DNA of 62,575 nt, the filler included. It is 10 parts of 10 records of this genome, joined end to end, with 100 filler letters (N's around TTAATTAATTAA, not from the genome) between each part and the next. Parts side by side here need not be neighbours in the genome. Positions count along the whole stretch, not along the records: positions 11,574 to 16,791 come from SRR7504441_11331; 9 more parts are not named here. One strand, written 5' to 3'. Below are positions 7,354 through 62,575 of the stretch, piece by piece. Position numbers and translations under genes: made by a program. Numbering within the stretch: the stretch's first letter is position 1; each line of letters starts with the position of its first letter. The notes beneath the pieces are model-generated. The model had not been told where the DNA came from and did no database searches. It saw nothing but the letters and a program-made list of their open reading frames with translations.

Positions 7354-10300
7354 TCACGACCAGACTACGTTGGAGACACATTCTTGCAGCTCTTTGAGCG
7401 ACACCTTCGGAAGCACTGCTTGCGCCTCGGCAGGGAGCAGTACTTTCCACGGTCGGCGAGCAACCAACCGAACAAACTCGAAGAAGCTAATTGAACCATT
7501 GCCATCCTTATCGAACACAAGCATCGCGTCGCGCACTTCCTCACGCAGCTGTGCATTCACCGGTCGGTTCAACATTCGCCACACCTAATCGCACAATCAT
7601 TACCTTGCGCACTTCTATGGACTTGCCTGCTCGCAGAGCTGCAGAAGTTCCGACTCCTCCAGCTGGCCGTCTCCGTTGAGATCCATCTGGTCAAAGAGCT
7701 TCTTTGCCGCTGTCACCACCAGATGCAGATCCGGCTCACCATCAGCCTTGCTCACAGCAGGTTGCTGCTTTGCCGGCGAGATCTCGCGCATCACCATCAA
7801 AGGGAGCTGCTCTTGCACATCTGGCGGGAGCAGGTCCTTCCATGGAGCTCGCGTTAACATCCTGAGGAATTCATTAAACGAGATCGTACCTGACCGCCAA
7901 CACACTCAGGGCTGGCCCTGAGGCACGGAACACACCGCTATCGTCAGTGTCAAACACAGCCATAGCACTCCGCACTTCAGTCATCAGATTGAGGCGCTGG
8001 TCTGCAGGGAGAGGCACCCCAAGCTGATCCCACAGCTTCTGAAGCAGTACAGCCATCTCGTCTTCGTCTATCTCGCCATTGCGGGACGTGTCAGCATCCT
8101 CAAACAGCTGCTTTGCAACGCGAATCACAGCCTGGCTCGCCATTTGCGAAGCGGCTTCTGAATTAGTCTCGGATGTTGAAGGTCCTGCACAACACGAATC
8201 ATGGAACTGGCATTGCACACAACTCGAGCAATGATGCACACACCTTCTGATGCAGGGTGAGCTGCTGCTCGAGGTTCTTCGTGGCTGAATTGCGTTAAAT
8301 TATGCTTCATCACTTGGATGGGCAGACCCTGCTGCACATCCTTTGGGAACAGCATTCGCCATGGAGGCATGGTGAGCATCTTGGCGAACTCTGAAAAGCT
8401 TAATACGCCATCGCCATCTGCATCGAACCTGCGCATGGTGTCGCGCACATCCTCTACTAGACCCATCCGTTGACCATGCTGCAAAGGCTTACCAAGCTTT
8501 TCCATTAAATGTGGAATCAAAGCAGCCAGCTCTTCTGCATCGATTGTGCCACTATCGTTGGCATCAAAATTGTCGAAAAGCTCCTGTGCTAAGCTCATTA
8601 CCGTTGCAGCAGCAGATTCACTCGAATCCTTCCAGATCCAATCGGCTGAGCCTCGTCTACCGCGCTTCTTGACTGGCGATGCGCTTCTGGCTTCGGCCTT
8701 GACCCTCTCCATGAGTTCAAGTGGTAACAAAAGCCAGAACGGCTTGACCCTAACCATCGCCCTGAAGCTGTCTAAGTTGATACCCTGGCTGCTGGCATGC
8801 CCAAACTTTTCGATAACTGCGGCGACATCTTGTTGCCGCCGTTCCTCATTTGGAGGGCATTGGCCAGACACTTCCCAGACTCGTTGCAGAACTGTCCTCA
8901 TCACACCCTCATCCAACCTACCTATTTGAGTAGCATCGAAGCTATTGAAGAGCTTCGCAGCTGCATTGTCGACCGGATCTTCGAACGTCGGTACAGCTGC
9001 TGCCTCTGTAGCGTCGCGTGCAGCAGCTGCAGTGAGGTCTGTCCGAACCATCCTCAGCACTAGGAAAGGCAGCTTGTCCTGCACTGCTGCTGGCATCAAC
9101 GACTTCCAGGGTGTCCGAGTGAGCATCATGAGGAACTCACTAAAACTCATTGTACCGTTCCCATCCTTGTCGAATGTTGCTATTGCCAATCGTACTTCCT
9201 CGACAACTCGCATCTTCAACTCTGGTTGCACCGCCACCCCCGTTTGTTTCCACACCTCCTGTACGACAGCTGCAAGCTCATTCTCGTCTAGGGAGCCACT
9301 GGAATCACTGTCGAACTGATCGAAGATTGTTCGAGCAGTGTCATGAACCTGTTGTGCATCGAGAGCAGCAAGCTTGGCTTGGTCCAATGCTGCCACGGTC
9401 TCCTCTGCCTGTTTGAGTTCCTTCACCATGGTTCGCACGACTTGCGGCAGCTCCTTTTGCACTGGTTCGGGCAAAAGTGTGCAGTACGGCGCCTGGGTCA
9501 GCATCCTAAGGAACTCACCAAAGGCAACTGGGCGTGTGAATTCAGACAGCGCGGCATCCAGAAGATCGGCTGAAGTTTTGGAGGATAGACCGCCACCAAG
9601 TTGATCAATCAATGTTCCCAACAATCCAGGCAGCTCTTGCTCCGAAACAAGGTTGTCGTGGTCAGTGTCGACTTTCTCGAACAGTTCTCTTGCAAATCTA
9701 ACGACCACACTGGCCGGGCTCCCGCTCTCACCATCCCATGCCCAGCTCTGTGCTACTTCCTCCATTGCACTGGCATCGTCTTGGGCCTGGAGTGTCTTCT
9801 CAGCCCGTAGGGCTTTGAGCAGGATCATTGGGAGCTTGACGTGCACAGCTGGCGGGAACATATCTCTGAAAGGACTCATTGTGATCATCCGAAGAAACTC
9901 AAAAAAACTGAGAGTGCCGTTCCCATCCGTATCGAAGCGTTGCATTACTTTCCGAATCTCTCCCATCATGTTCATCTTGAAATGGTTTGGGAGCCGCTGG
10001 CCCAGTCTCTCGAACAGATTTTTAATTACAACAGCTAGCTCGTCGTCGTCTAGACCACCACTCTGGTCTGTATCGGCTTCAGTAAAAAGGTCTTTCGCTA
10101 CCTGATAGACCATTTGTCCCGCGTTCTCTGAGGACCCTTCCTCTTCCCATGCCCAGCGCTTTTGATTAGATGTCACTGCTGGTGTCAGGGCTCTCTCGAA
10201 CCGGCCAATAAGCAGGTTGACTTGACGGCCAGCCTCTGGAGGCAGCAAATCGAGCCATGGCGGTCGAACAATCATTTTGAGGAACTCATGAAAACTGATT

Positions 10301-11448
10301 CCCCCAGAGCGGTCCAGATCGAACTCATCTAGCGAAGTTCTGACATCCCGCTCCACGCGCATCTGGCGGTCACCATCAAGAGGCTGGTCCACTTTGTCCC
10401 ACATGCCTACAATCAGGCTGCCGAGCTCAGCGTGGTCAATCTGGCCGGAGCCATCTGTATCAAACTCCTCAAACAACTGGCGGGCAGCCTCCACAAGCTT
10501 CTTTGCCTCCTCTCTTCCCTCCTGCATTGCCGCCTGGACTGCGTCTGCGACCTGCTCCTGCTGAGATGTGCCTGCCTGCTGGGCTAGCTGCTCAATTGCT
10601 TCTTCCTCGCTGCTTGCCTTACCAGCTTGCATCAGTTTGAGCACCAGTTTCGGTAGCACTGTCGTCACTTCTTGAGGCAGCAAGTCTCTCCATGGCTTCA
10701 TTGTAATCATTCGAAGAAATTCTGGGAATGACAATGATCCTGATTGATCGAGATCAAATTTATCCATGCTTGATGCCACAAAATCGTGCATGTGCAGTTT
10801 ATATTCTGGTGGGAGTTCTTTGCCAATTTGGTTGAATAGCGTGCTGATCAGCCCAGCTACCTCATCCACTTCGACAGCCCCACTTTGATCAGTGTCGGCC
10901 ATTTGGAACACAGACTTGGCGAACGATAGCACGACACTGGCTGGTGGCTCGGTACTGTCCTCCCATACCCAATGCACTTGAGGTGGTCGAACACGGACAG
11001 GTGATGCTGCTCTGAAAATCTTATTCGCGAACCGAGGCAGCGACTCAGTAAGACTGTCTGGTAGCAACGTCGACCATGGCCTGTGAGTGAGCATCCTCAG
11101 GAACTCACTGAACTCAAGCTGTCCGGAATTGTCGACATCAAACTCTACCATCGATGCACTCACAAGCTCACTGACCGATTCACCCTTATCTGATGCCAGC
11201 TTCTCGAGCTCTTTTGTCTGCCCAAGCTTGTTCAGAATAGTGGAGAGAACTGACTCAAGTTCAGATGCTCCTAGCGCACCACTCTTATCCGTGTCTGCAC
11301 CATTGAATAGAGTCTTTGCGAACTCGACAATCTCGGCTGGCGCTGACTGTCCTTGAGCACTCCAAGACCAGGCCTCTTCTTGTCCACCTGGCGCTGCTGT
11401 TTTGCCTTGGGCAAGCTGCATTACAAGTTTTGGGAGAGTTTGCTGGAC
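7354..11448 (-). CDS. Giant EF-hand repeat protein (at least 10 paired EF-hand modules), 5'-partial
   Basis: Repeated DxDxSG loops, each pair followed by F-x-EFLRM-x(3)-PW-x-x-LLP; three short introns near the 3' end; the exon begins at 11448 after an intron acceptor. Confidence 0.9.
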
Positions 11449-11473
11449 CTGAACGGGCATTAATTGCTTCCAA

Positions 11474-11573
11474 NNNNNNNNNNNNNNNNNNNNNNNNNNN
11501 NNNNNNNNNNNNNNNNNTTAATTAATTAANNNNNNNNNNNNNNNNNNNNNNNNNNNNNNNNNNNNNNNNNNNN
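11474..11573. other. Artificial contig linker N-TTAATTAATTAA-N (also near 16792, 32918, 37465, 40568, 43857, 47023, 51338, 56087)
   Basis: Identical ~100-nt N-padded spacer with stops in all six frames. Confidence 0.98.
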
Positions 11574-12397: not shown

Positions 12398-12619
12398 ATG
12401 AGCTCGGGCCGGAAGCGAGCCGCTTCTGCCTCACTGGAACGCGGTCCGGACGCGTCGCCCACATTGCCGACACCGTCGCTTTTGAAGGCGTCGGGCATGG
12501 TCACAATCAATGTCGGCGGCACCAAGTTCACATCGGCCGCGGATACTCTCTCGTCCGGCTCATCCTACTTCTCGCGGCTCTTTAGTGACCTATACCGTAT
12601 CCACTACTCGTACATGTAG
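12398..12619 (+). pseudogene. Truncated KCTD-type BTB/POZ (BTB_2) gene
   Basis: VTINVGGTKFTSAADTLSSGSSYFSRLFS then an abrupt switch to AT-rich intergenic-type DNA near 12586. Confidence 0.6.
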
Positions 12620-12806
12620 TCGTATTCTAATTACATGTACATGTAACATTTTTGTCGTAAGTTTCCGAACCTCTCATTACATAGCTCGAGCCTTAAGTAG
12701 CGGCTATAGGTACTCCTTTAATTGTTTAAATGATTATGTGCACGTACAGTTAGAGAAGAATGTGACGAATGTAGACGAATGACTTTGTCACTAACCATTG
12801 GCATCA

Positions 12807-15341
12807 TTATTGACCATCATGATTCTTGTATGGCGCTTCTGCTCGCGGTAAGCTCATGGCCGGCGGTGGTCCATAGTCAGCCAAAGAAGGAGGCATCCTG
12901 CACAACCGACTAAGCCTCCTCTGCAATGATCTAATCCAATCATGATCAGAGCGCGCTGCATGAGTGCCTTGGAAATGCGATGCCACCTTAATCACGGGTG
13001 TCTATTAACAGGCGTCGTACCTCGGCTATTTGCTCCATTATCGTAACGAACTCGTCAAACCCGATCGCACGGGGGCCTCCATTCTCGAACCGGCCTCCAT
13101 TCGGCTGGATCAGACCCCCATTTCCCTCCTGCGCCTTGCGCATCAGCTCCAACAGATCCAGCCTCAACGGATCCAGCCGCTCGAGCTCCAACGTGCCACT
13201 CCCAGTTACTTCAAACACCCGCCATGCCCGCGCCATGTCTGGCTCACCCCTCATGCCGGCCCGAGCTGGGGGCGCACTCTCGTGATTCTGGCTGACAAAA
13301 AGAGCCCGGCACACGTCGTTGATCTCGGCTGGAGCGTACCTGAACGGGCATTATTCCCTAATTGGGAAGGTCTGACGGGCACTATTCCCTAATCAAGAAG
13401 GTCTGTCGGGCACTATTCCCTAATCAGGAAGTCGATCTGGTCGTGCCTGGCCAGTTGGAGCTTCTGCACAATCACGCCCGCCTTCCGCATCTGCCGAGCT
13501 GCTCAGCACAAGGGCACCTTCCTAATTAGGCAATAACTGCGTCACACCTTCCTAATTAGGGAATAACCTGGAATGGATTCATCTGGAAGGTAGTCCCCAT
13601 CGGGAGCACCCCCAAAGCCGCCCAAACCTCCCCGAACGAGTCCCCGAGCGCCCCGAGCACACCGCTCCCGTCGTCGCTAGAAGAGCGACTGTCTTCCCCC
13701 ACCAGTTTGCCTGCCCACCGGCTCATTCCACAATTAGAAACGGCCGCACGCTGCAGATCGTCGTTCTTGGCCTCCAGTTCGGCCTTCTCTGCCTCCAGTT
13801 TATCAACCATGTCCGCGAGGTCCAGCACCTGCTCAGCAGTTACACCTGCCTAATTAGGGAATAACGCGCACCTGCGTCAGCATCTGCCGTTCGGTGCCCA
13901 TGCACGTGTAACTGCTCAGCCTGGATCTCCGCGACTTCGGACCGGGGTCCGCCGAGGCCGGCCTCCAGCGGGGTGTCGAGCCACCGGCCCACAACTGCAT
14001 CGCGCTGCGGTTGCTCCTCGGTTGCTCCTCAAGGGCTCTAGGAGTTGCCGGCCTGAACAGTTCGTCCTCCTCGATCCTGGATCTCTGCCTGGCTCTCCGC
14101 GACTTCGGAATGGGGGCGGTCGCGCCGCGAGGCTCGCTCCCCTCTCCAGTGACCCTCTCCAGCGAGGCTCGCTCCACGGACCCTCTCCTATCCCTCGCCA
14201 TCAGCGACCGGGCTGTCAAAGGACCAGACTGATCAGACCGCTCCCCCAACCTGCTGCCAGTCAGCGGCCTACGGGGCGCTGCGAGGCGCCTATCAAGCCA
14301 GGCTTCCGCGTCCGCCGAGCAGTAGATCGCCGGGAGCTCGTCCTTTCGCTCGCTCCGTCGCCGGCTGCTCGGGGCGGAATCGTGGGTCGATTTGGGGGAG
14401 GCGGATGGGGAGGGGGCTTTGCTCTCAATTGCGGACTCAATACTCGTCACGAGACTGTTGAGGGCTCTTGGAGTTGCCGGCCTGAGCAGTTCGTCCTCCT
14501 CGAGTCTGGATCTCCGCCTGGCGGATGGGGATGGGGAGGGGGATTTGCCCTCGATTGCCGAGTCAATACTCGCCACGAGACTGTTGAGCGCCTGACCTCT
14601 CGCTCGGGCTGGGCCAGCCCGGTGCCTGCCTGCCGGTCCTGCCCGCGCGGGGTCGAGAGCATCGTCTGCTCAAGCTGGTGCAATTGATCGTTCAGAAACT
14701 TGTCCCTCTCTGCCCTACCGTCGGCGGCTGGGCAGCCCCGACAAGCGCACGGCTGAAACCGAGTCCGATCGGGCCGGGCACTTCGATGCAGTACTCGATC
14801 GGGCCGTGACACTCAGCCGGATCACCGTCCCGGCCGGCTGGGAAACTCAGCTGCAACGACAGCGGCCTCTCTGTGGCCCTCGTAAGCCGGTCAGGCCGCG
14901 CGAGGTGCACCTTGGCAGGCCTCTCGGATCTGCCCGGCCGGCTGGCGGCGTGCCGGAGGCGGGGCACACCATGGCCATCGCCTCCTCGTAGCCGGATTCC
15001 CGCAGCCCGCGCCCATTCACTCGGGAGACGTAGCAACCTAGCCGCGCTTCCGGCCACTTTTGGGCGTCGCTGATTTTGGTGACAACCTGCCGCCGGTCGG
15101 CGCCGGCCGGCCAGGGGAGGGGCACCACTTGGGCCTCGGCCAGAGGAGCCAAGCGGTCCACCAGCCCGGCCACTTGTCCCTCGGTCAGCATGGCCATCGA
15201 GTGCATCGCCGTCCGCTGCGCGACCGACCGGCCGGCCTCCGCCGCCTCGGCGGCCTCCTGCTTGCGCTCCGCAGCGGCCGCGGCCACTGAGGCCGCGTTC
15301 CAGACGTACCGCTTGCAGTAACGGCCGCTCCCGGCCGGCAT
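12807..15341 (-). CDS. Hypothetical protein with PDZ-like segment, internal repeats, coiled coil and EF-hand-like C-terminus; multiple introns
   Basis: Spliced reading VSRVNGRGLRESGYEEAMAM ... EEDELLRPATPRAL repeats ... VLDLADMVDKLEAEKAELE ... RQMRKAGVIVQKLQLARYAPAEINDVCRALF ... IGFDEFVTIM. Confidence 0.65.
13340..13871 (-). repeat. Three introns (13340-13446, 13499-13567, 13829-13871) carrying six copies of a TATTCCCTAATTAGGAAGG-like motif; introner-like
   Basis: Motif visible as three ~31-bp tandem units, two units and one unit respectively; splicing all three restores the ORF. Confidence 0.8.
14027..14590 (-). repeat. Coding internal duplications (~120-bp units)
   Basis: ggagttgccggcctga-x-cagttcgtcctcctcga at ~14041 and ~14470; tcaatactcg-x-cacgagactgttgag at ~14437 and ~14563. 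Confidence 0.8.
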
Positions 15342-16109: not shown

Positions 16110-16569
16110 TAATTGATCGCCGACGGGACCGTATGAAATGATATTAACAATTAGCCCGTGTGTGCCGTATGTTCAGCGTAAAGCTGTCGATTCGGTCGTA
16201 TCAAGCGCACTTTAATACAAGTACTCGTACGCGCACACCGATCGACCGATTCATGATATTAATTATTATTTAGCGGCCATCATGATTATCTTGGCAACAG
16301 ATAACTAGCAGATGCGAGCAATACGCGCCGGAGATTCGGGGACATCCCAGCGTCAGGGCGAGTGCACAATCAGCCGCGGCAACGAGTGCACTGCAGCCCC
16401 GCTAGAAGCCCCCCGCCGAGAGGAGAGGGAACCAAACGCGATGTCGCCGCTGGAGGGTTCGGCCTGCTGCCCCCGGACACGCTGGACGGCGACGACGCTC
16501 AGCCGGACCGAGGGCACCGCCTGGCTGAAGGCGACCGAGGCGAGCAGAGTGAGTTGGATGGGGTTTAAT

Positions 16570-28889: not shown

Positions 28890-29194
28890 TTATCCTTGTG
28901 GCTCGTGGCGCGCCGACGAGACGTTCGGAGGACTGCTCCGAATGCTCACCCTGCAGCTGTGATAGTCGTTGGAGCCTGGCCGTTGAGATCTTGCCACAGC
29001 GTGGGGCTGCATCTAACATGATCAATTCTAATACAATTCTAATACTATTCTAATACAGTACGCATGCATCCTACATGCATCCAAGCACCATCACAAGTAA
29101 TCACTACGATAAGCCGCCGTGCGTTACGCCGCGCGTACGGGTAACACGTACTAAAAACTCGTGCAGGACGTGCAGACATTTTGATGAAACAGTG

Positions 29195-37851: not shown

Positions 37852-40494
37852 TCACTTCTTGTGGCGGAAGATCATGCCTTGGGCTCCGATCAACTCGTAA
37901 AACCGCGAGTGATGCCGGATGGTCAGCGGCATCACCCAGCGGTCAATCGCCTCAAAGCCAGCCTCGTCCAGCACATTAGCCACAGCCTCGGTGCAGCTTG
38001 CGCCGCCGTCTTGCCCTCCGAGCCACTCGCTGCGTTCGGTGAACTCTGGCTTCCAGGAGAAGGGGCTCGTGATCATCAGCATCCCTCCGGGGGTGACCAG
38101 CTGCTTCATATTCTGCAGAACAGTCTTGGGCTTGCTCAGCCGGCAGAGCAGGTTGCCGAGCAGTACGGCATCGTACTGCTGCTGGCCCCACTCCTGCGAA
38201 CTTGGGTTCGTGGCATCGCCTTGCACGAAGCTCAGCCGGTCACGCACGACTGAAGCCGGGACCACTGCAGTGAACTCCTCCCGGGCGTCGCCTTCGGCTT
38301 GGATCGAGTAGCTCAGCTTTCCATGCTGCTGCAGCTGCTGCGCGGTGTCCACGAAGCCATGGCTGTACTCAACTCCTGTCACCTCCGAGTATCCCTCCTT
38401 CTGGTCGGCCAGTGCAAAAGAAGCTCCGCCCACACCGCAGCCGAGGTCGAGCGCATTCCGCCGGGGGGCCTTGAGCTTGATCGCCGTCTCGATCAGCGTC
38501 TGGCCACACCGGGCCGGAAAGTTGACAGCCTCAGCAGGCACCCATTCGGGCACAGCCTCCGGGGGGAAGTGCAGGTGCAGATACCGGTTGGCCCACTCCT
38601 CCTGCTCGTAGTCGGCTTGGGTCTGGCGCACCTTTTCGGTGGCCATCGAGGCCGGCACCGCCGAGCCAGCTTGCTTGACTGAGCCGTCGGAAGCGAGGTA
38701 GTTGGGCGGCTCGACGTAGTCGGCTGCCTGGCGATATGGAGCCTGCGCGCTTGCATACGGGCCGGGCGAATCCATGCAGGCCGTGACCAGCCAGGGCTGC
38801 TCGTGCGGCTGCACCACCCGGAAGCCCGCGTGCTGGAAGAAATGCGGCCGGAACTGGTACCGCGCAAACACCGACGCCTGGTCGCCTGTCGAGATGAACG
38901 AGCCTCCCATGATCATATTATGTTCCCCGTCAAAGCACGGCAGCGTGAAGTCGTCGTACAGCTTGTGCAGCTCGAACCCGGGGAAGGCATTCTGGTGGTC
39001 TTCGCACCAATCCCAAGCATTGCCGAACACGTCCGCAAAGCCTTTGCCATTCGGCTCGGCTGCGGTGACTGCGCGTTCGGCGCCAGCGACCAGGTTGTAA
39101 TTATTGCCGGTGCTTGGCTGCATGATCGGGTCGTCGCTCGGCTCCAGATCCCGCAGCTGCCAGTGCTCGGCCTCGGTCAGCACACGGTACGGAGCGTCTT
39201 TCGAGCCGTCCTTGCGAGTCTTCCAAGCGCAGTAAGCCTTAGCCTCGTGGTAATTCACCACTGCCGGCCAGTCCCACTGCATCGGCTGCTCCGAGAACAC
39301 CGTCCGCAGATTAAACTGGTTCAACCCGTTAGGGCCAGTCGTGCGCCAGAAGGTCGGCGCGCGCACGTTCCTGAAGCAGGCCCATCCCCACCCATTGTCG
39401 GACCAGAGCGACTGGTCACGGTAACCGCCGTCGGTGACGAACTCGTAGAACTCGCCGTTGGTCACCTGGAACTCGGAAGCCGAGAACCTGCCCACCTTCA
39501 TCGGCTTGCTCCCATACTCGTTATCCCATCCATAAGTCGGCTCATTGGCCGCCTTGCCCATCGTGACCTCGCCAGCAGGCACCTCGATCATCCGGTTAAC
39601 CGCCGGAAAATTCTCCCCGCGCGCCGGCGGCTGCCAGCCGGCCTCGGTGCAGCTGAGCTGGAGTTTCGCCCAGCCCTCGGGCTCCTGGACCAGTTCTAGA
39701 GGCAGCTCTCGCATCAGCACGCTGCTAGTCTCAAGGTGGATTCTCTCGTGCTCGAACCCCATCGGCACAGACCACCAGGGCGAGTCCTGCAGTCCGGCGG
39801 CCAGCGACTCAAAGTCCGGGCCGTTCTCTATCACGTCGACAACTTTGTTGTACGCCTCGGCGCGGTACCGATGCACGTCCCGAATCGCAGGCCAGTCCAT
39901 GTGGTTCTTGGACAGGTCGTCCCAGCGCATCTCGTCCACGCCGGTCTCGAAGATCGCCTCGAAGTACGGCTCGATCGGCTGGTCGAGCAGCCCGGCCAGC
40001 CGGAACTTATTTATGTAAAACGCAGCCGTGTGCCCGTAGTAGAAGATGAGCGGGTGGCGCAAGTCGTGGTAAGGGGGGCGGTAGTACGGCTCCTCGCCCT
40101 TGAGCCCGGCGAACAGCATCTCGGTCATGCTCCAGGTGTTGTCGAAATACTGCTTCAGCTCGGCCCGGCTCGCGGTCTTCAGGTTGGGGAACGGAAGCGA
40201 CCCGGCCGCCTGGGGCTTAGGGCCGGTCCACCAGCTATCGGGCCGGGGCCCGTGCAGCCACCCGTCGTCGCCCTGGGTGTTCTGCCTCCAGTCAGTCACT
40301 TGTTGCTGGTCGTCCGCCAGCGCGAGCGTGGCGGCCAGCTCCCGCTGCCCAACGGCCTCGGCTCCGGCGAGCGTGGCAAGAGGGTGCGAGGGAGGCCGGG
40401 TGGAGGAGGTGGAGAAGCTCTTCCGGAAGGCCGGGCGGCCCTTGTAAAGAAATAACTTGACCTTGTCTTGGGCGGCGCGGTAGGAGGCGTACAT
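37852..40494 (-). CDS. ovoA: Ovothiol synthase (5-histidylcysteine sulfoxide synthase + SAM methyltransferase), intronless
   Basis: LRHPLIFYYGHTA, GVDEMRWDD, GFEHERIHLETSSVL (HX3HXE), GWDNEYG, YDDF, FRPHFFQHAGFR, ALDLGCGVG. Confidence 0.95.
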   Translation of the reverse strand: MYASYRAAQDKVKLFLYKGRPAFRKSFSTSSTRPPSHPLATLAGAEAVGQRELAATLALADDQQQVTDWRQNTQGDDGWLHGPRPDSWWTGPKPQAAGSLPFPNLKTASRAELKQYFDNTWSMTEMLFAGLKGEEPYYRPPYHDLRHPLIFYYGHTAAFYINKFRLAGLLDQPIEPYFEAIFETGVDEMRWDDLSKNHMDWPAIRDVHRYRAEAYNKVVDVIENGPDFESLAAGLQDSPWWSVPMGFEHERIHLETSSVLMRELPLELVQEPEGWAKLQLSCTEAGWQPPARGENFPAVNRMIEVPAGEVTMGKAANEPTYGWDNEYGSKPMKVGRFSASEFQVTNGEFYEFVTDGGYRDQSLWSDNGWGWACFRNVRAPTFWRTTGPNGLNQFNLRTVFSEQPMQWDWPAVVNYHEAKAYCAWKTRKDGSKDAPYRVLTEAEHWQLRDLEPSDDPIMQPSTGNNYNLVAGAERAVTAAEPNGKGFADVFGNAWDWCEDHQNAFPGFELHKLYDDFTLPCFDGEHNMIMGGSFISTGDQASVFARYQFRPHFFQHAGFRVVQPHEQPWLVTACMDSPGPYASAQAPYRQAADYVEPPNYLASDGSVKQAGSAVPASMATEKVRQTQADYEQEEWANRYLHLHFPPEAVPEWVPAEAVNFPARCGQTLIETAIKLKAPRRNALDLGCGVGGASFALADQKEGYSEVTGVEYSHGFVDTAQQLQQHGKLSYSIQAEGDAREEFTAVVPASVVRDRLSFVQGDATNPSSQEWGQQQYDAVLLGNLLCRLSKPKTVLQNMKQLVTPGGMLMITSPFSWKPEFTERSEWLGGQDGGASCTEAVANVLDEAGFEAIDRWVMPLTIRHHSRFYELIGAQGMIFRHKK

Positions 40495-40676
40495 GTTGAA
40501 GCGCTGAAACCTATCCGCGCTCGAAGCGGCCAGTTCAGTTGTCGGTCAACAAGATCTGACCTAGATANNNNNNNNNNNNNNNNNNNNNNNNNNNNNNNNN
40601 NNNNNNNNNNNTTAATTAATTAANNNNNNNNNNNNNNNNNNNNNNNNNNNNNNNNNNNNNNNNNNNNGCGGCGTCG

Positions 40677-56596: not shown

Positions 56597-57872
56597 ATGG
56601 CGTGCGCTCGCTTCCCCTCCAAGACCTGCATGCTGGCGCTCATGCTGGCTGCCTTTGCCGCGGCGGAGGAGATCGGAGCCCCGGCACAGACATGCGGCGA
56701 GCTCAAGGCCGGGTACAAGGCGGCGGCGTGCTGCAACCAGTCCAAGGCCACGAAGATCCCGAGCAAGCTGGTCAAGGTCTGCGGCGCCTGGCCGGCTGGG
56801 TTCTCCGGGCTGGGCGACGCGGCCGAGGGCGCGATGCAGATGATTTCCGAGCTGAGCCAGGGCAGCCTCCAGTTCAACTATACACCGACTTACTATACCA
56901 CGATCTTCAACGCCACCCGTACCGGCGAGTGCGACGCCTACATTGCGGCCGACTATTACTTCATGGACGAGGATCCGCCGGCCAGCAAGGCGCTCGCGTT
57001 CTTCACCTCCGTGCCGTTCGGGATGACCGCCACCGAGCAGTCCGCCTGGATGTACGCGGGCGGCGGGCAGGAGCTCTACCAGCAGCTGCTCGATCGGTAT
57101 GGGCTGATCGGGTTCCTTCACGGGAGCACCGGGTTGCAATCGGGCTACTGGGCCAAGTTCGCGATCAACTCGCTGGAGGATGTCGTGAACAAGACCCTCC
57201 GGATCCCTGGGATGGGAGGCCAGGTCTGGAAGAAGCTTTAGGGTTAGGGGTTAGGTTAGGGTTAGGTCTGGAAGAAGCTCGGTGCCAACATTGTCACCGT
57301 ACCTGGAGGCCAAATCGGTGCAGAGATGGCAAACGGCACGCTCGACATGTTGTGCGCCCCCGGCTCGGCTGCGGATGTCTGAGTGCGTGTGCAGCGAGTG
57401 GGTCGGGCCCTGGCTGGATACCAAGATGAAGGACGCGATCAGACCAGCGACCCACCTCTACCACCCGGGCATCCACGAGCCGGGCTCCGCTCTCTCTCTC
57501 ACTTTCAACAAGCAGTTTTACTCAACCCTGTCGACACACCAGCACAAGGCGATTGAGCTCGGGTGCAAGGCGCAGCTGCTGCAGAACTTGGCCCTGTTCA
57601 CTGCCAAGAATGCCGAGTACCTGGAGCAGGCTGAGGCGAACGTGACAGCCGGGATGCTCCCCGAGCCGGTGATGCGCGGGCTGTTCAACGCCAGCATGGA
57701 GTACCTCGACGACATGCAGGAGGAGCTCAAGAACGACACTGTGGCCAGCGAGATTGTGAGCAGCTATCGAGGGTTTATCGCGAAGCAGAACCGGTGGCAG
57801 AAGATCCTAACCGAATACACCCAGTCCCGGATCCAGTTCATGCAGCCCGATGAAGCAGCAACCGAGCACTAG
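56597..57872 (+). CDS. TRAP transporter solute-binding protein (DctP/TakP-like), signal peptide, 2 introns (57224-57265; ~57352-57394)
   Basis: FFTSVPFGM...WMYAGGGQEL, LRIPGMGGQ|VWKKLG...PGGQI...GTLDMF|EWVGPWLD, YHPGIHEPG. Confidence 0.9.
57222..57279 (+). repeat. Telomeric-type TTAGGG tract flanked by 16-bp direct repeats
   Basis: AGGTCTGGAAGAAGCT-ttagggttaggggttaggttagggtt-AGGTCTGGAAGAAGCT. Confidence 0.97.
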
Positions 57873-58341
57873 CGCGGCGTCGCTGAATGTGAAGTCGACG
57901 CTGTACATATTAAGCAAGTTAGTTATACTCGTACTTATACTCGTAGAAATGCATACTTGCATAGCATCAGTTTAGGTAGCCAGTTAGGGTTAGTCAGTTT
58001 AGTGAGGCAAGTATGAATCATTTTATGAACGATTGAATTGTCAGGAATTGTTTTACAAGCAATGACATTTGAATTACAATGAATTGAATAATGACAATCA
58101 TATGAACCATTCAAGCAGAATTTAGAGAATCGTCGACGGAATGGATTACTACTGCATGCATGGCGTTCATTGCAATCAGCCGTTCATCACACTCGCTAAC
58201 TATTGCGCGTGAGTGTGGGGCGGGAGCCTAGGTTGCAGGACAGCGGCAGCGTGCTGACGGCCAGCAGGTCAACCGTGCCGACCTTCACCGAACACTCAGA
58301 TACCTTGTATAATATCATCTAATTGCTTGTATGAGCCAAGG

Positions 58342-62302: not shown

Positions 62303-62575
62303 TTGCAGAAGTATTAGATCTCGAACATGATTCCTCTATGATTCCTCGTGAGACTCGAATCACTTCTGGGTAAATTAGGTGCTAGGCTCCGAGTAGCATG
62401 CGAGTGAAGGGAATCATAGGAATACATGTATAAGGGTGTACCAGAATCCAATCAATCCAATCAATCCATGGGCACAAGACCAAGTAGCTGGGCGTTCGAT
62501 TTTTGATTTTCCGTCTCTTTTCTTGCACCTTTTCCCCGATCAGGCATGATGGGAGTAGCTAGCTCCCAGTTGGTT

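Follow-up and report, generated by a model that had tools for sequence, protein, structure and literature searches.

The origin of introns is a long-standing question, and most gained introns have no identifiable source. In Daphnia pulex, new introns have been attributed to the repair of staggered double-strand breaks (PMC4202315; reviewed in PMC3443670), and junction repeats together with internal repeats are described for them (PMC4202315). In the snap-back form of synthesis-dependent microhomology-mediated end joining (SD-MMEJ), as presented in PMC2943611, synthesis starts from a short inverted repeat that acts as primer, after which the newly made end anneals to the other side of the break. 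Introner families, in the definitions given in PMC9860276 and PMC12130899, consist of at least four introns after secondary insertions have been filtered out, and their similarity spans both intron ends and not merely a sub-portion. For runs of adjacent intron gains, there was no general model as of 2012, according to PMC3514964.

In the present study, a three-member intron family in a marine microbe was analysed. The family is real and so far confined to one gene, and its members are probably spliced. The explanation that we favour, with fair but not high confidence, is that of a gene-private family, born locally by templated break repair and spread by copying at the DNA level. A repair-made intron copied next door is more likely than a jumping element, since the apparent founder looks assembled from adjoining DNA.

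Materials and methods

The window, i.e. the whole stretch of DNA that was analysed, is 62,575 bases long and consists of ten contigs joined by N-linkers; the intron family lies on the contig at 11574-16791. The host is a eukaryote of high GC content whose introns are very short. Only a very small part of its genome lies in the window, and all counts of copies apply to the window. The splice grammar of the host was learnt from a simple gene model, which predicted 193 introns on both strands. The control set comprised 74 of these 193, picked by eye from genes with sensible proteins; the controls are predicted introns. All of the duplication and template tests were designed once the pattern had been seen.

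The 74 control introns were 33-61 nt long (median 40) with a GC content of 0.70 ± 0.10. Their donors were GT in 66 cases and GC in 8, GTGC was the commonest intron start (30/74), and CAG stood at the 3′ end in 72/74. The word CTGA was found within the last 24 nt of 39 controls, in 37 of which the distance of its A from the end was 10-21 nt, and the word GCTGAG stood near the acceptor in 13. A GC-AG intron (8/74) or a GCTGAG near the acceptor (13/74) is therefore ordinary in this host. For a dynamin encoded on another contig of the window, no relative above about 60% identity was found.

Results

Host gene and reading frame

The features of the host gene, from its upstream part to its end, are as follows:

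13872-14669 (-): upstream low-complexity coding stretch with internal duplications, the last 160 nt in an ambiguous frame (frame scores)
13829-13871 (-): I1, the apparent founder, a 43-nt putative GT-AG intron with a single unit (frame test; stops in six frames)
13750-13828 (-): exon, coiled-coil-like (frame score +9.5, top of six; E 0.018 for the Pfam M repeat, not reaching the cut-off)
13711-13749 (-): probable 39-nt intron with CTAATT (gene model; missed in the preliminary description)
13568-13710 (-): exon (best of six frames)
13491-13567 (-): I2, a 77-nt putative GT-AG intron with two units (period 30) and, behind them, the terminal 10 nt of I1 (frame test)
13447-13490 (-): exon of 44 nt, the spacer between I2 and I3 (best of six frames, +3.9)
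13340-13446 (-): I3, putative GC-AG intron, 107 nt, 3.3 inverted units of 35+31+31+10 nt (TRF, frame test)
12988-13339 (-): last coding stretch, EF-hand-like (calbindin E 2.5e-4; atlas EF-hand clusters 0.92-0.94)
13239-13277 (-): probable further 39-nt in-frame intron within the last coding stretch (gene model; likewise missed before)

Each of the three blocks has stops in all six frames and lies between well-scoring exons, and the frame demanded by the model of 43 + 77 + 107 nt is the top one of six in 5/5 flanking exon pieces. For these two reasons the three blocks are, judged from the DNA, very probably introns. Their GT/GC...CAG ends are usable, and their removal restores one open frame. 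The boundaries given in the preliminary description for I1 (43 nt) and for I3 (107 nt, GC-AG) keep this frame as they stand, their splicing being a prediction. The middle intron had been placed at 13499-13567 (69 nt). With that version the next exon meets a TGA, so the intron must end 8 nt further on, at 13491, which is the nearest acceptor to open the frame to the last exon when I1 and I3 are held fixed. The branch A of the resulting 77-nt intron lies 13 nt from the end, within the usual range of 10-21. As a consequence of this shift only I1 ends in TGCTGAGCAG, an ending previously ascribed to both introns; in I2, TGCTGAGCAG stands 8 nt before the end. The tandem copies in opposite orientation noted earlier in I3 are indeed present, and the entire intron, not only three copies within it, is built of units. 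In Pfam, the last exon gave only E 0.13. A 4-nt micro-exon within I2, proposed by the gene model, was considered implausible, and the intron at 13711-13749 was also considered as a fourth family member; its score of 8.5, against a control best of 9, was reached by 60/1000 shuffles, and its membership is unproven.

In one RNA run, a poly(A) metatranscriptome, 5% of the words were present. None of its four aligned records shows a joint; RNA contigs span 13906-14055 and 14097-14247 without gaps, and the blocks at 13340-13871 lie outside this coverage. The upstream exon is represented in the metatranscriptome at 97-99% identity, which may reflect DNA or pre-mRNA. Neither an orthologue of the host gene nor a second allele was found in the searches made for them, and of the two hits obtained, one was a tandem-repeat ORF and the other a distant EF-hand-like protein. 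Two short RNA records at 15228-15267 do not align out to their ends and probably come from other organisms. The end of an RNA contig at 13906, beside the GT of an intron-like 34-nt segment, was judged to be chance (a 151-nt record).

The blocks could alternatively be unspliced and represent insertions left unrepaired in a gene copy that is dead or dying, which we consider quite improbable. This would agree with RNA coverage that starts at 13906 and holds no joint across the three blocks, with the failure to find a homologue and with the frame ambiguity upstream. It would also agree with the branch word of I1, only 5 nt from the intron end (2 of the 39 controls with this word have it that close), with I3, which has no TGA-type branch word within its last 24 nt, and with a long I2-I3 stem over the I2 donor (z -5.8). 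A dying gene copy is, however, hard to reconcile with splice-like ends that restore one frame ranking best of six in every flanking piece, with the EF-hand likeness kept in the last exon, or with an upstream exon so closely matched in poly(A) material, subject to the reservation on its origin given above.

Several other coding features of the window were recorded. The upstream coding stretch of the host gene carries in-frame internal duplications at 13915-14591 (-), with spacings of 126, 168 and 429 nt. On the same contig, a BTB/POZ-like frame at 12500-12620 (+) (Pfam E 0.03) ends in AT-rich, intergenic-type sequence after about 30 residues and is possibly a fragment. A very large multi-EF-hand protein of >1100 residues without an intron is encoded at 7354-11517 (-). 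The long intron-free ORF at 38000-40500 (-) resembles by eye an ovothiol synthase OvoA-type fusion (sulfoxide synthase + methyltransferase).

The unit and its six copies

The sequence CCTAATTAGG was found three times in the window (13521, 13551 and 13849), against 0.01 expected. In a search of all 62,575 bases, a 21-nt core gave six matches with at most 4 mismatches, all within 13351-13864, and allowing 5 mismatches added no match elsewhere. The six copies of the unit of about 27 nt lie within 13350-13865, three per strand:

13839-13865 (-): unit copy c1, 27 nt (sequence comparison)
13541-13567 (-): unit copy c2, 2/27 differences from c1; gives I2 its GT donor
13511-13537 (-): unit copy c3, 5/27 differences from c2
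13350-13376 (+): unit copy c4, inverted, 3/27 differences from c2 and 5 from c1
13381-13407 (+): unit copy c5, inverted (sequence comparison)
13412-13438 (+): unit copy c6, inverted, the most decayed (sequence comparison)

The opposite-strand trio has a period of 31 (TRF 13344-13431, 2.8 copies, 89%). Over 27 columns the copies differ pairwise at 2 to 10 positions, and TATT(C/G)CCTAAT is kept in 6/6. The GC content of the three blocks is 0.49-0.51, a level as low as this being found in only 4-6 of the 74 controls. Thus, the preliminary description was right in reporting a motif shared by three nearby introns in both orientations, within introns that are AT-richer than others, and the comparison of the copies supports the common descent and tandem expansion proposed there. 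The motif had also been called palindromic, and this is strictly so for c1-c3 (I1 and I2), where the palindrome is perfect; each I3 copy carries 1-2 substitutions.

The same description had suggested a spreading, intron-generating element. In its sharpest form, this would be a dispersed introner, a tiny non-autonomous DNA transposon inserting in either orientation, here after three local hops. The unit has several of the expected properties, being AT-rich, with a central palindrome, copies in both orientations, GT...AG within it and 4-bp GTTA/TAAC ends in c1. Moreover, aquatic species are enriched in introners, and TSDs or TIRs are described as lacking from many of these (PMC9860276). We nevertheless regard this explanation as unlikely. 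The unit was found in none of the 74 control introns (best family score 9), nor anywhere else in the 62.6 kb, the other nine contigs included; the motif is therefore confined to one gene within the window, the outcome that had been named beforehand as speaking against an introner. In a metagenome scan, 17/17 matching loci were single chance matches with unrelated flanks, and a scan of viral sequences gave 0 matches. The three introns have different ends and lengths (43/77/107 nt), and TSD/TIR structure, suggested as a check, was not family-wide: the junction scores are 12, 3 and 6, so that a junction duplication stands out in one intron only, and the inverted ends of c1 extend over just 4 bp. 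The unit alone does not form a stable fold (z +0.64). As to the introner definition, three family introns were counted among 78 in the window (with one doubtful intron and the 74 controls), the ends of I1 and I2 are out of register by 6 nt on the 5′ side and 8 nt on the 3′ side, and I3 is an array with ends of its own. Finally, half of the unit is templated beside I1, the apparent founder, at a distance of 30-50 nt, and this local template of c1 is a stronger argument against a dispersed family than the negative searches.

AT-rich repeats of other kinds were seen in the intergenic DNA. TACTCGTAC and TACATGTA recur there, e.g. at 12605-12645, 16222-16235 and 57923-57945, and are candidate 3′-end or promoter signals; short tandem repeats with a period of 9-11 nt occur at 29023-29057, 62327-62347 and 62445-62468. 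A scan for bacterial promoters and terminators, which is not relevant here, gave 0 matches.

Anatomy of the apparent founder

I1 and its flanks contain the following parts:

13868-13882 (-): junction duplication, first copy, 11 nt before the donor + the first 4 nt of I1 (junction score 12)
13825-13838 (-): junction duplication, second copy, the last 10 nt of I1 + 4 exon nt, one base shorter (junction score)
13893-13920 (+): local template, whose antisense matches I1 at 17/19 (13831-13849) + 7/9 (13864-13872) (alignment, shuffles)
13850-13863 (-): 14-nt AT-rich filler without a local template, with one TTAGGG (+ strand) and most of the palindrome (local comparison)

The junctions of I1 form a direct repeat of 14/15 nt around CAG|GTGC. 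The score of 12 was reached by 0/74 controls (best 9) and by 2/5402 cross-paired junctions, and of the three family members only I1 has its exon end directly repeated at the opposite intron end to a degree that exceeds the background. The second copy of the junction gives I1 its branch word and acceptor.

At the same time, the 3′ half of I1 is the antisense of 13902-13920 at 17/19, i.e. of DNA 30-50 nt upstream, and the first bases of I1 extend this match by 7/9 at 13893-13901, an inner match that was missed by the aligner. The inverted match between I1 and its upstream flank scored 14, which was reached by 0/74 controls (best 12.5-13.5) and 10/5220 cross pairs; 0/395 tiles scored at least 12. 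When the duplicated ends were kept constant, 1/20,000 shuffles of the interior reached the match, and 0/5000 codon-order shuffles of the flank. The inverted match overlaps the direct repeat by 8 nt, and without the last 10 nt of I1 it scores 8.5, the level of 11/395 tiles. The fold of the region had z -4.66, versus -4.34 for the best control. I1 and its flanks therefore form an inverted repeat with nearby sequence, the 14-nt filler lying outside it, and about 29/43 nt of I1 can be read from DNA within 50 nt. The single TTAGGG of the filler is weak evidence for a telomere link, and the filler, as the carrier of the palindrome, could come from a dispersed element.

The DNA just upstream of I1 suggests that an older intron may have been involved. 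The segment 13872-13905 (-) resembles an ordinary 34-nt intron, with one AACGG, so the duplicated junction of I1 may once have served as an acceptor; I1 would then have enlarged or replaced an earlier intron. The coding score of 13872-14030 is +2.9 in the other frame versus -6.1, and the change of frame is marked by a tandem duplication of 11 nt, at 14008-14030 (11 + 34 = 45 nt); a frameshift compensated by intron retention is a possible reading of this pattern. Only a 43-nt I1 is compatible with the sequence as it now stands and with the gap-free RNA contig. A 92-nt element at 13829-13920, with inverted arms of 19 nt and a duplicated AG, was considered too, and was not preferred: it needs the other upstream frame, and this frame runs into a stop near 14030, where the RNA contig is free of gaps.

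A separate intron of the window, at 57224-57265 (+), is a 42-nt GT-AG intron made of TTAGGG-variant telomere-type repeats together with a perfect 15-nt duplication of the start of the downstream exon. Its junction score of 16 was reached by 0/74 controls and 0/5402 cross pairs. It sits in a gene of the DctP family (TRAP solute-binding, bacterial-type), and its removal restores the frame; it is an independent repair-type intron in the same window.

I2, I3 and the order of copying

The likeness of the copies to the template 11-mer falls from c1 (10/11) through c2 (8), c4 (7), c5 (6) and c3 (5) to c6 (3), and the differences form a chain (c1-c2 2, c2-c4 3, c1-c4 5). In addition, the terminal 10-mer of I1 recurs behind the second unit of I2, whose flanking exons hold no template for it (scores 5-7.5); its 8-nt parts each occur in the last 24 nt of 1/74 controls. 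Taken together, these comparisons show descent from I1 to I2 and from an I2-type unit to I3. Compared with I1, I2 lacks the first 6 nt, has a doubled unit and carries 8 extra nt at its end. It starts exactly at the GT of the unit, after an exonic CAG, and its junction duplication has a score of 3, which 41/74 controls reach. I3 draws both its GC donor and its CAG acceptor from the unit. A target duplication of I3 (score 6) was not significant, being matched by 4/74 controls and 287/5402 cross pairs. Similarity ends at or inside the introns; the flanking exons are unrelated, i.e. they were not duplicated.

The start of I2 at the unit GT behind an exonic CAG, without target duplication, is what would be expected if spliced I1, or its 37-nt GT-AG part, had been reverse-spliced into the same transcript and then reverse-transcribed. 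Transposition within the same transcript is, moreover, the reading offered in PMC3609843 for half of the fungal same-gene duplications. Nonetheless, I2 is not an end-to-end copy of I1, given its missing start, its doubling and its additional end, and we hold this route to be improbable. A reverse-spliced intron keeps its sense, and since I3 is antisense, a DNA step is needed in any case. An antisense member lies beyond the reach of reverse splicing as treated in PMC4122922.

A selected regulatory array, consisting either of sites for a dimeric DNA-binding protein or of an I2-I3 stem that controls the 44-nt exon, seems very improbable. The word TAATTA is of the homeodomain type, six related sites within 0.5 kb all keep TATT(C/G)CCTAAT, and the pre-mRNA stem around the 44-nt exon, which covers the I2 donor, is better than 200/200 shuffles. 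On the other hand, the likeness extends over 27 nt, far past a binding word, as descent predicts, and the palindrome has decayed in 3/6 copies. Any inverted copy would produce such a stem as a matter of course, the frame would shift if the 44-nt exon were skipped, and the Rfam search gave 0 matches. The pairing of I2 with I3 is read as a by-product of the inverted copy.

Discussion

Local birth by templated repair, followed by copying at the DNA level, could account for the family in three steps. First, a break at the junction 13872 would have been repaired with templated synthesis: the free end would have folded back about 20-50 nt upstream, where 28 nt of antisense were copied, a 14-nt AT-rich filler would have been added, and rejoining via the shared word TGCTGA would have duplicated the CAG|GTGC junction. 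Because the two copies of the junction supply a donor and an acceptor, the 43-nt insert would be spliceable without a change in the protein. Second, the last 37 nt of I1, which by themselves run from GT to AG, may have been copied 260 nt downstream and duplicated in tandem, giving I2. Third, an I2-type unit may have been copied onto the opposite strand, 45-160 nt further, and have grown to the 3.3 units of I3, a G-to-C change in the unit providing a CAG acceptor in the inverted orientation. Inserts of this kind would be tolerated because the splice grammar of the host is weak (a GT or GC donor, a short TGA-type branch word and CAG). The choice between new introns and the enlargement of existing ones is nearly balanced for the inserts, with a slight lean towards new introns; for I1 and I2, the other idea of the preliminary description, a repeat that colonises introns already present, may therefore apply.

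A wider proposal can be put forward tentatively, namely that this lineage gains introns without a transposon, repair-built newborn introns serving as templates at further breaks nearby, in either orientation. If this is true, genes would grow private intron families, because a newborn AT-rich intron with a palindrome would template repairs a few hundred bases away, and the present locus, with founder, template and copy order all readable, would be a model for adjacent intron gains. The immediate interest of the locus is that most of a 43-nt intron is traceable to the adjoining 50 bases, and two further introns, one of them on the opposite strand, to the 43-nt intron. Should splicing and gain both be true and the pattern be common in the genome, the organism would offer a natural test bed that sets repair and local copying against transposons or reverse splicing as sources of introns.

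Among the described systems, introners resemble this family in having similar introns at different positions, which are AT-richer and may lie in opposite orientations, in recruiting splice sites partly from a duplication, and in their aquatic hosts (PMC9860276, PMC12130899). Unlike introners as described there, the present family comprises three introns in one gene without end-to-end similarity, has no family-wide TSD or TIR, and has an apparent local origin. The symmetrical sister (stw)introns of the Hypoxylaceae are also related introns with a central, 10-nt AT-rich palindrome, and end joining repair is invoked for them in PMC8469720. They are, however, dispersed in many genes, 90-200 nt long and equipped with inverted arms of 45-55 nt (PMC8469720), whereas the unit described here has no such arms.

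Fungal same-gene duplications share with the present case near-identical sequence within one gene (here, in the window), a founder of normal size and the lack of a stable fold (PMC3609843). The flanking exons are not duplicated here, as in the transposition subtype of that study. The differences are one antisense member and two tandem arrays at this locus, orientation being undiscussed in the account of PMC3609843. The new introns of Daphnia have junction repeats of 4-12 bp, compared with 14/15 nt in I1, and the main text of PMC4202315 mentions no inverted templates, nor does its account report copying into neighbouring introns. The Daphnia introns are described as gains, whereas I1 is a putative gain, known from one sequence.

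In anatomy, I1 has the pattern of snap-back SD-MMEJ, together with the junction repeat of introns put down to staggered breaks (PMC4202315, PMC3443670): I1 and its flanks form an inverted repeat, a short primer and microhomology repeats can be assigned, and complex inserts from several rounds are described in PMC2943611. The breaks in that work were induced in Drosophila, templates were analysed within ±20 bp and most inserts were very short, and its account makes no tie to intron creation (PMC2943611). A literature search, weak in that it took in few subscription papers, gave no intron that had arisen as an inverted copy of its flank and had later been copied to its neighbours in both orientations. 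As a single locus, the family is an illustration made from known parts, and not a new class of element.
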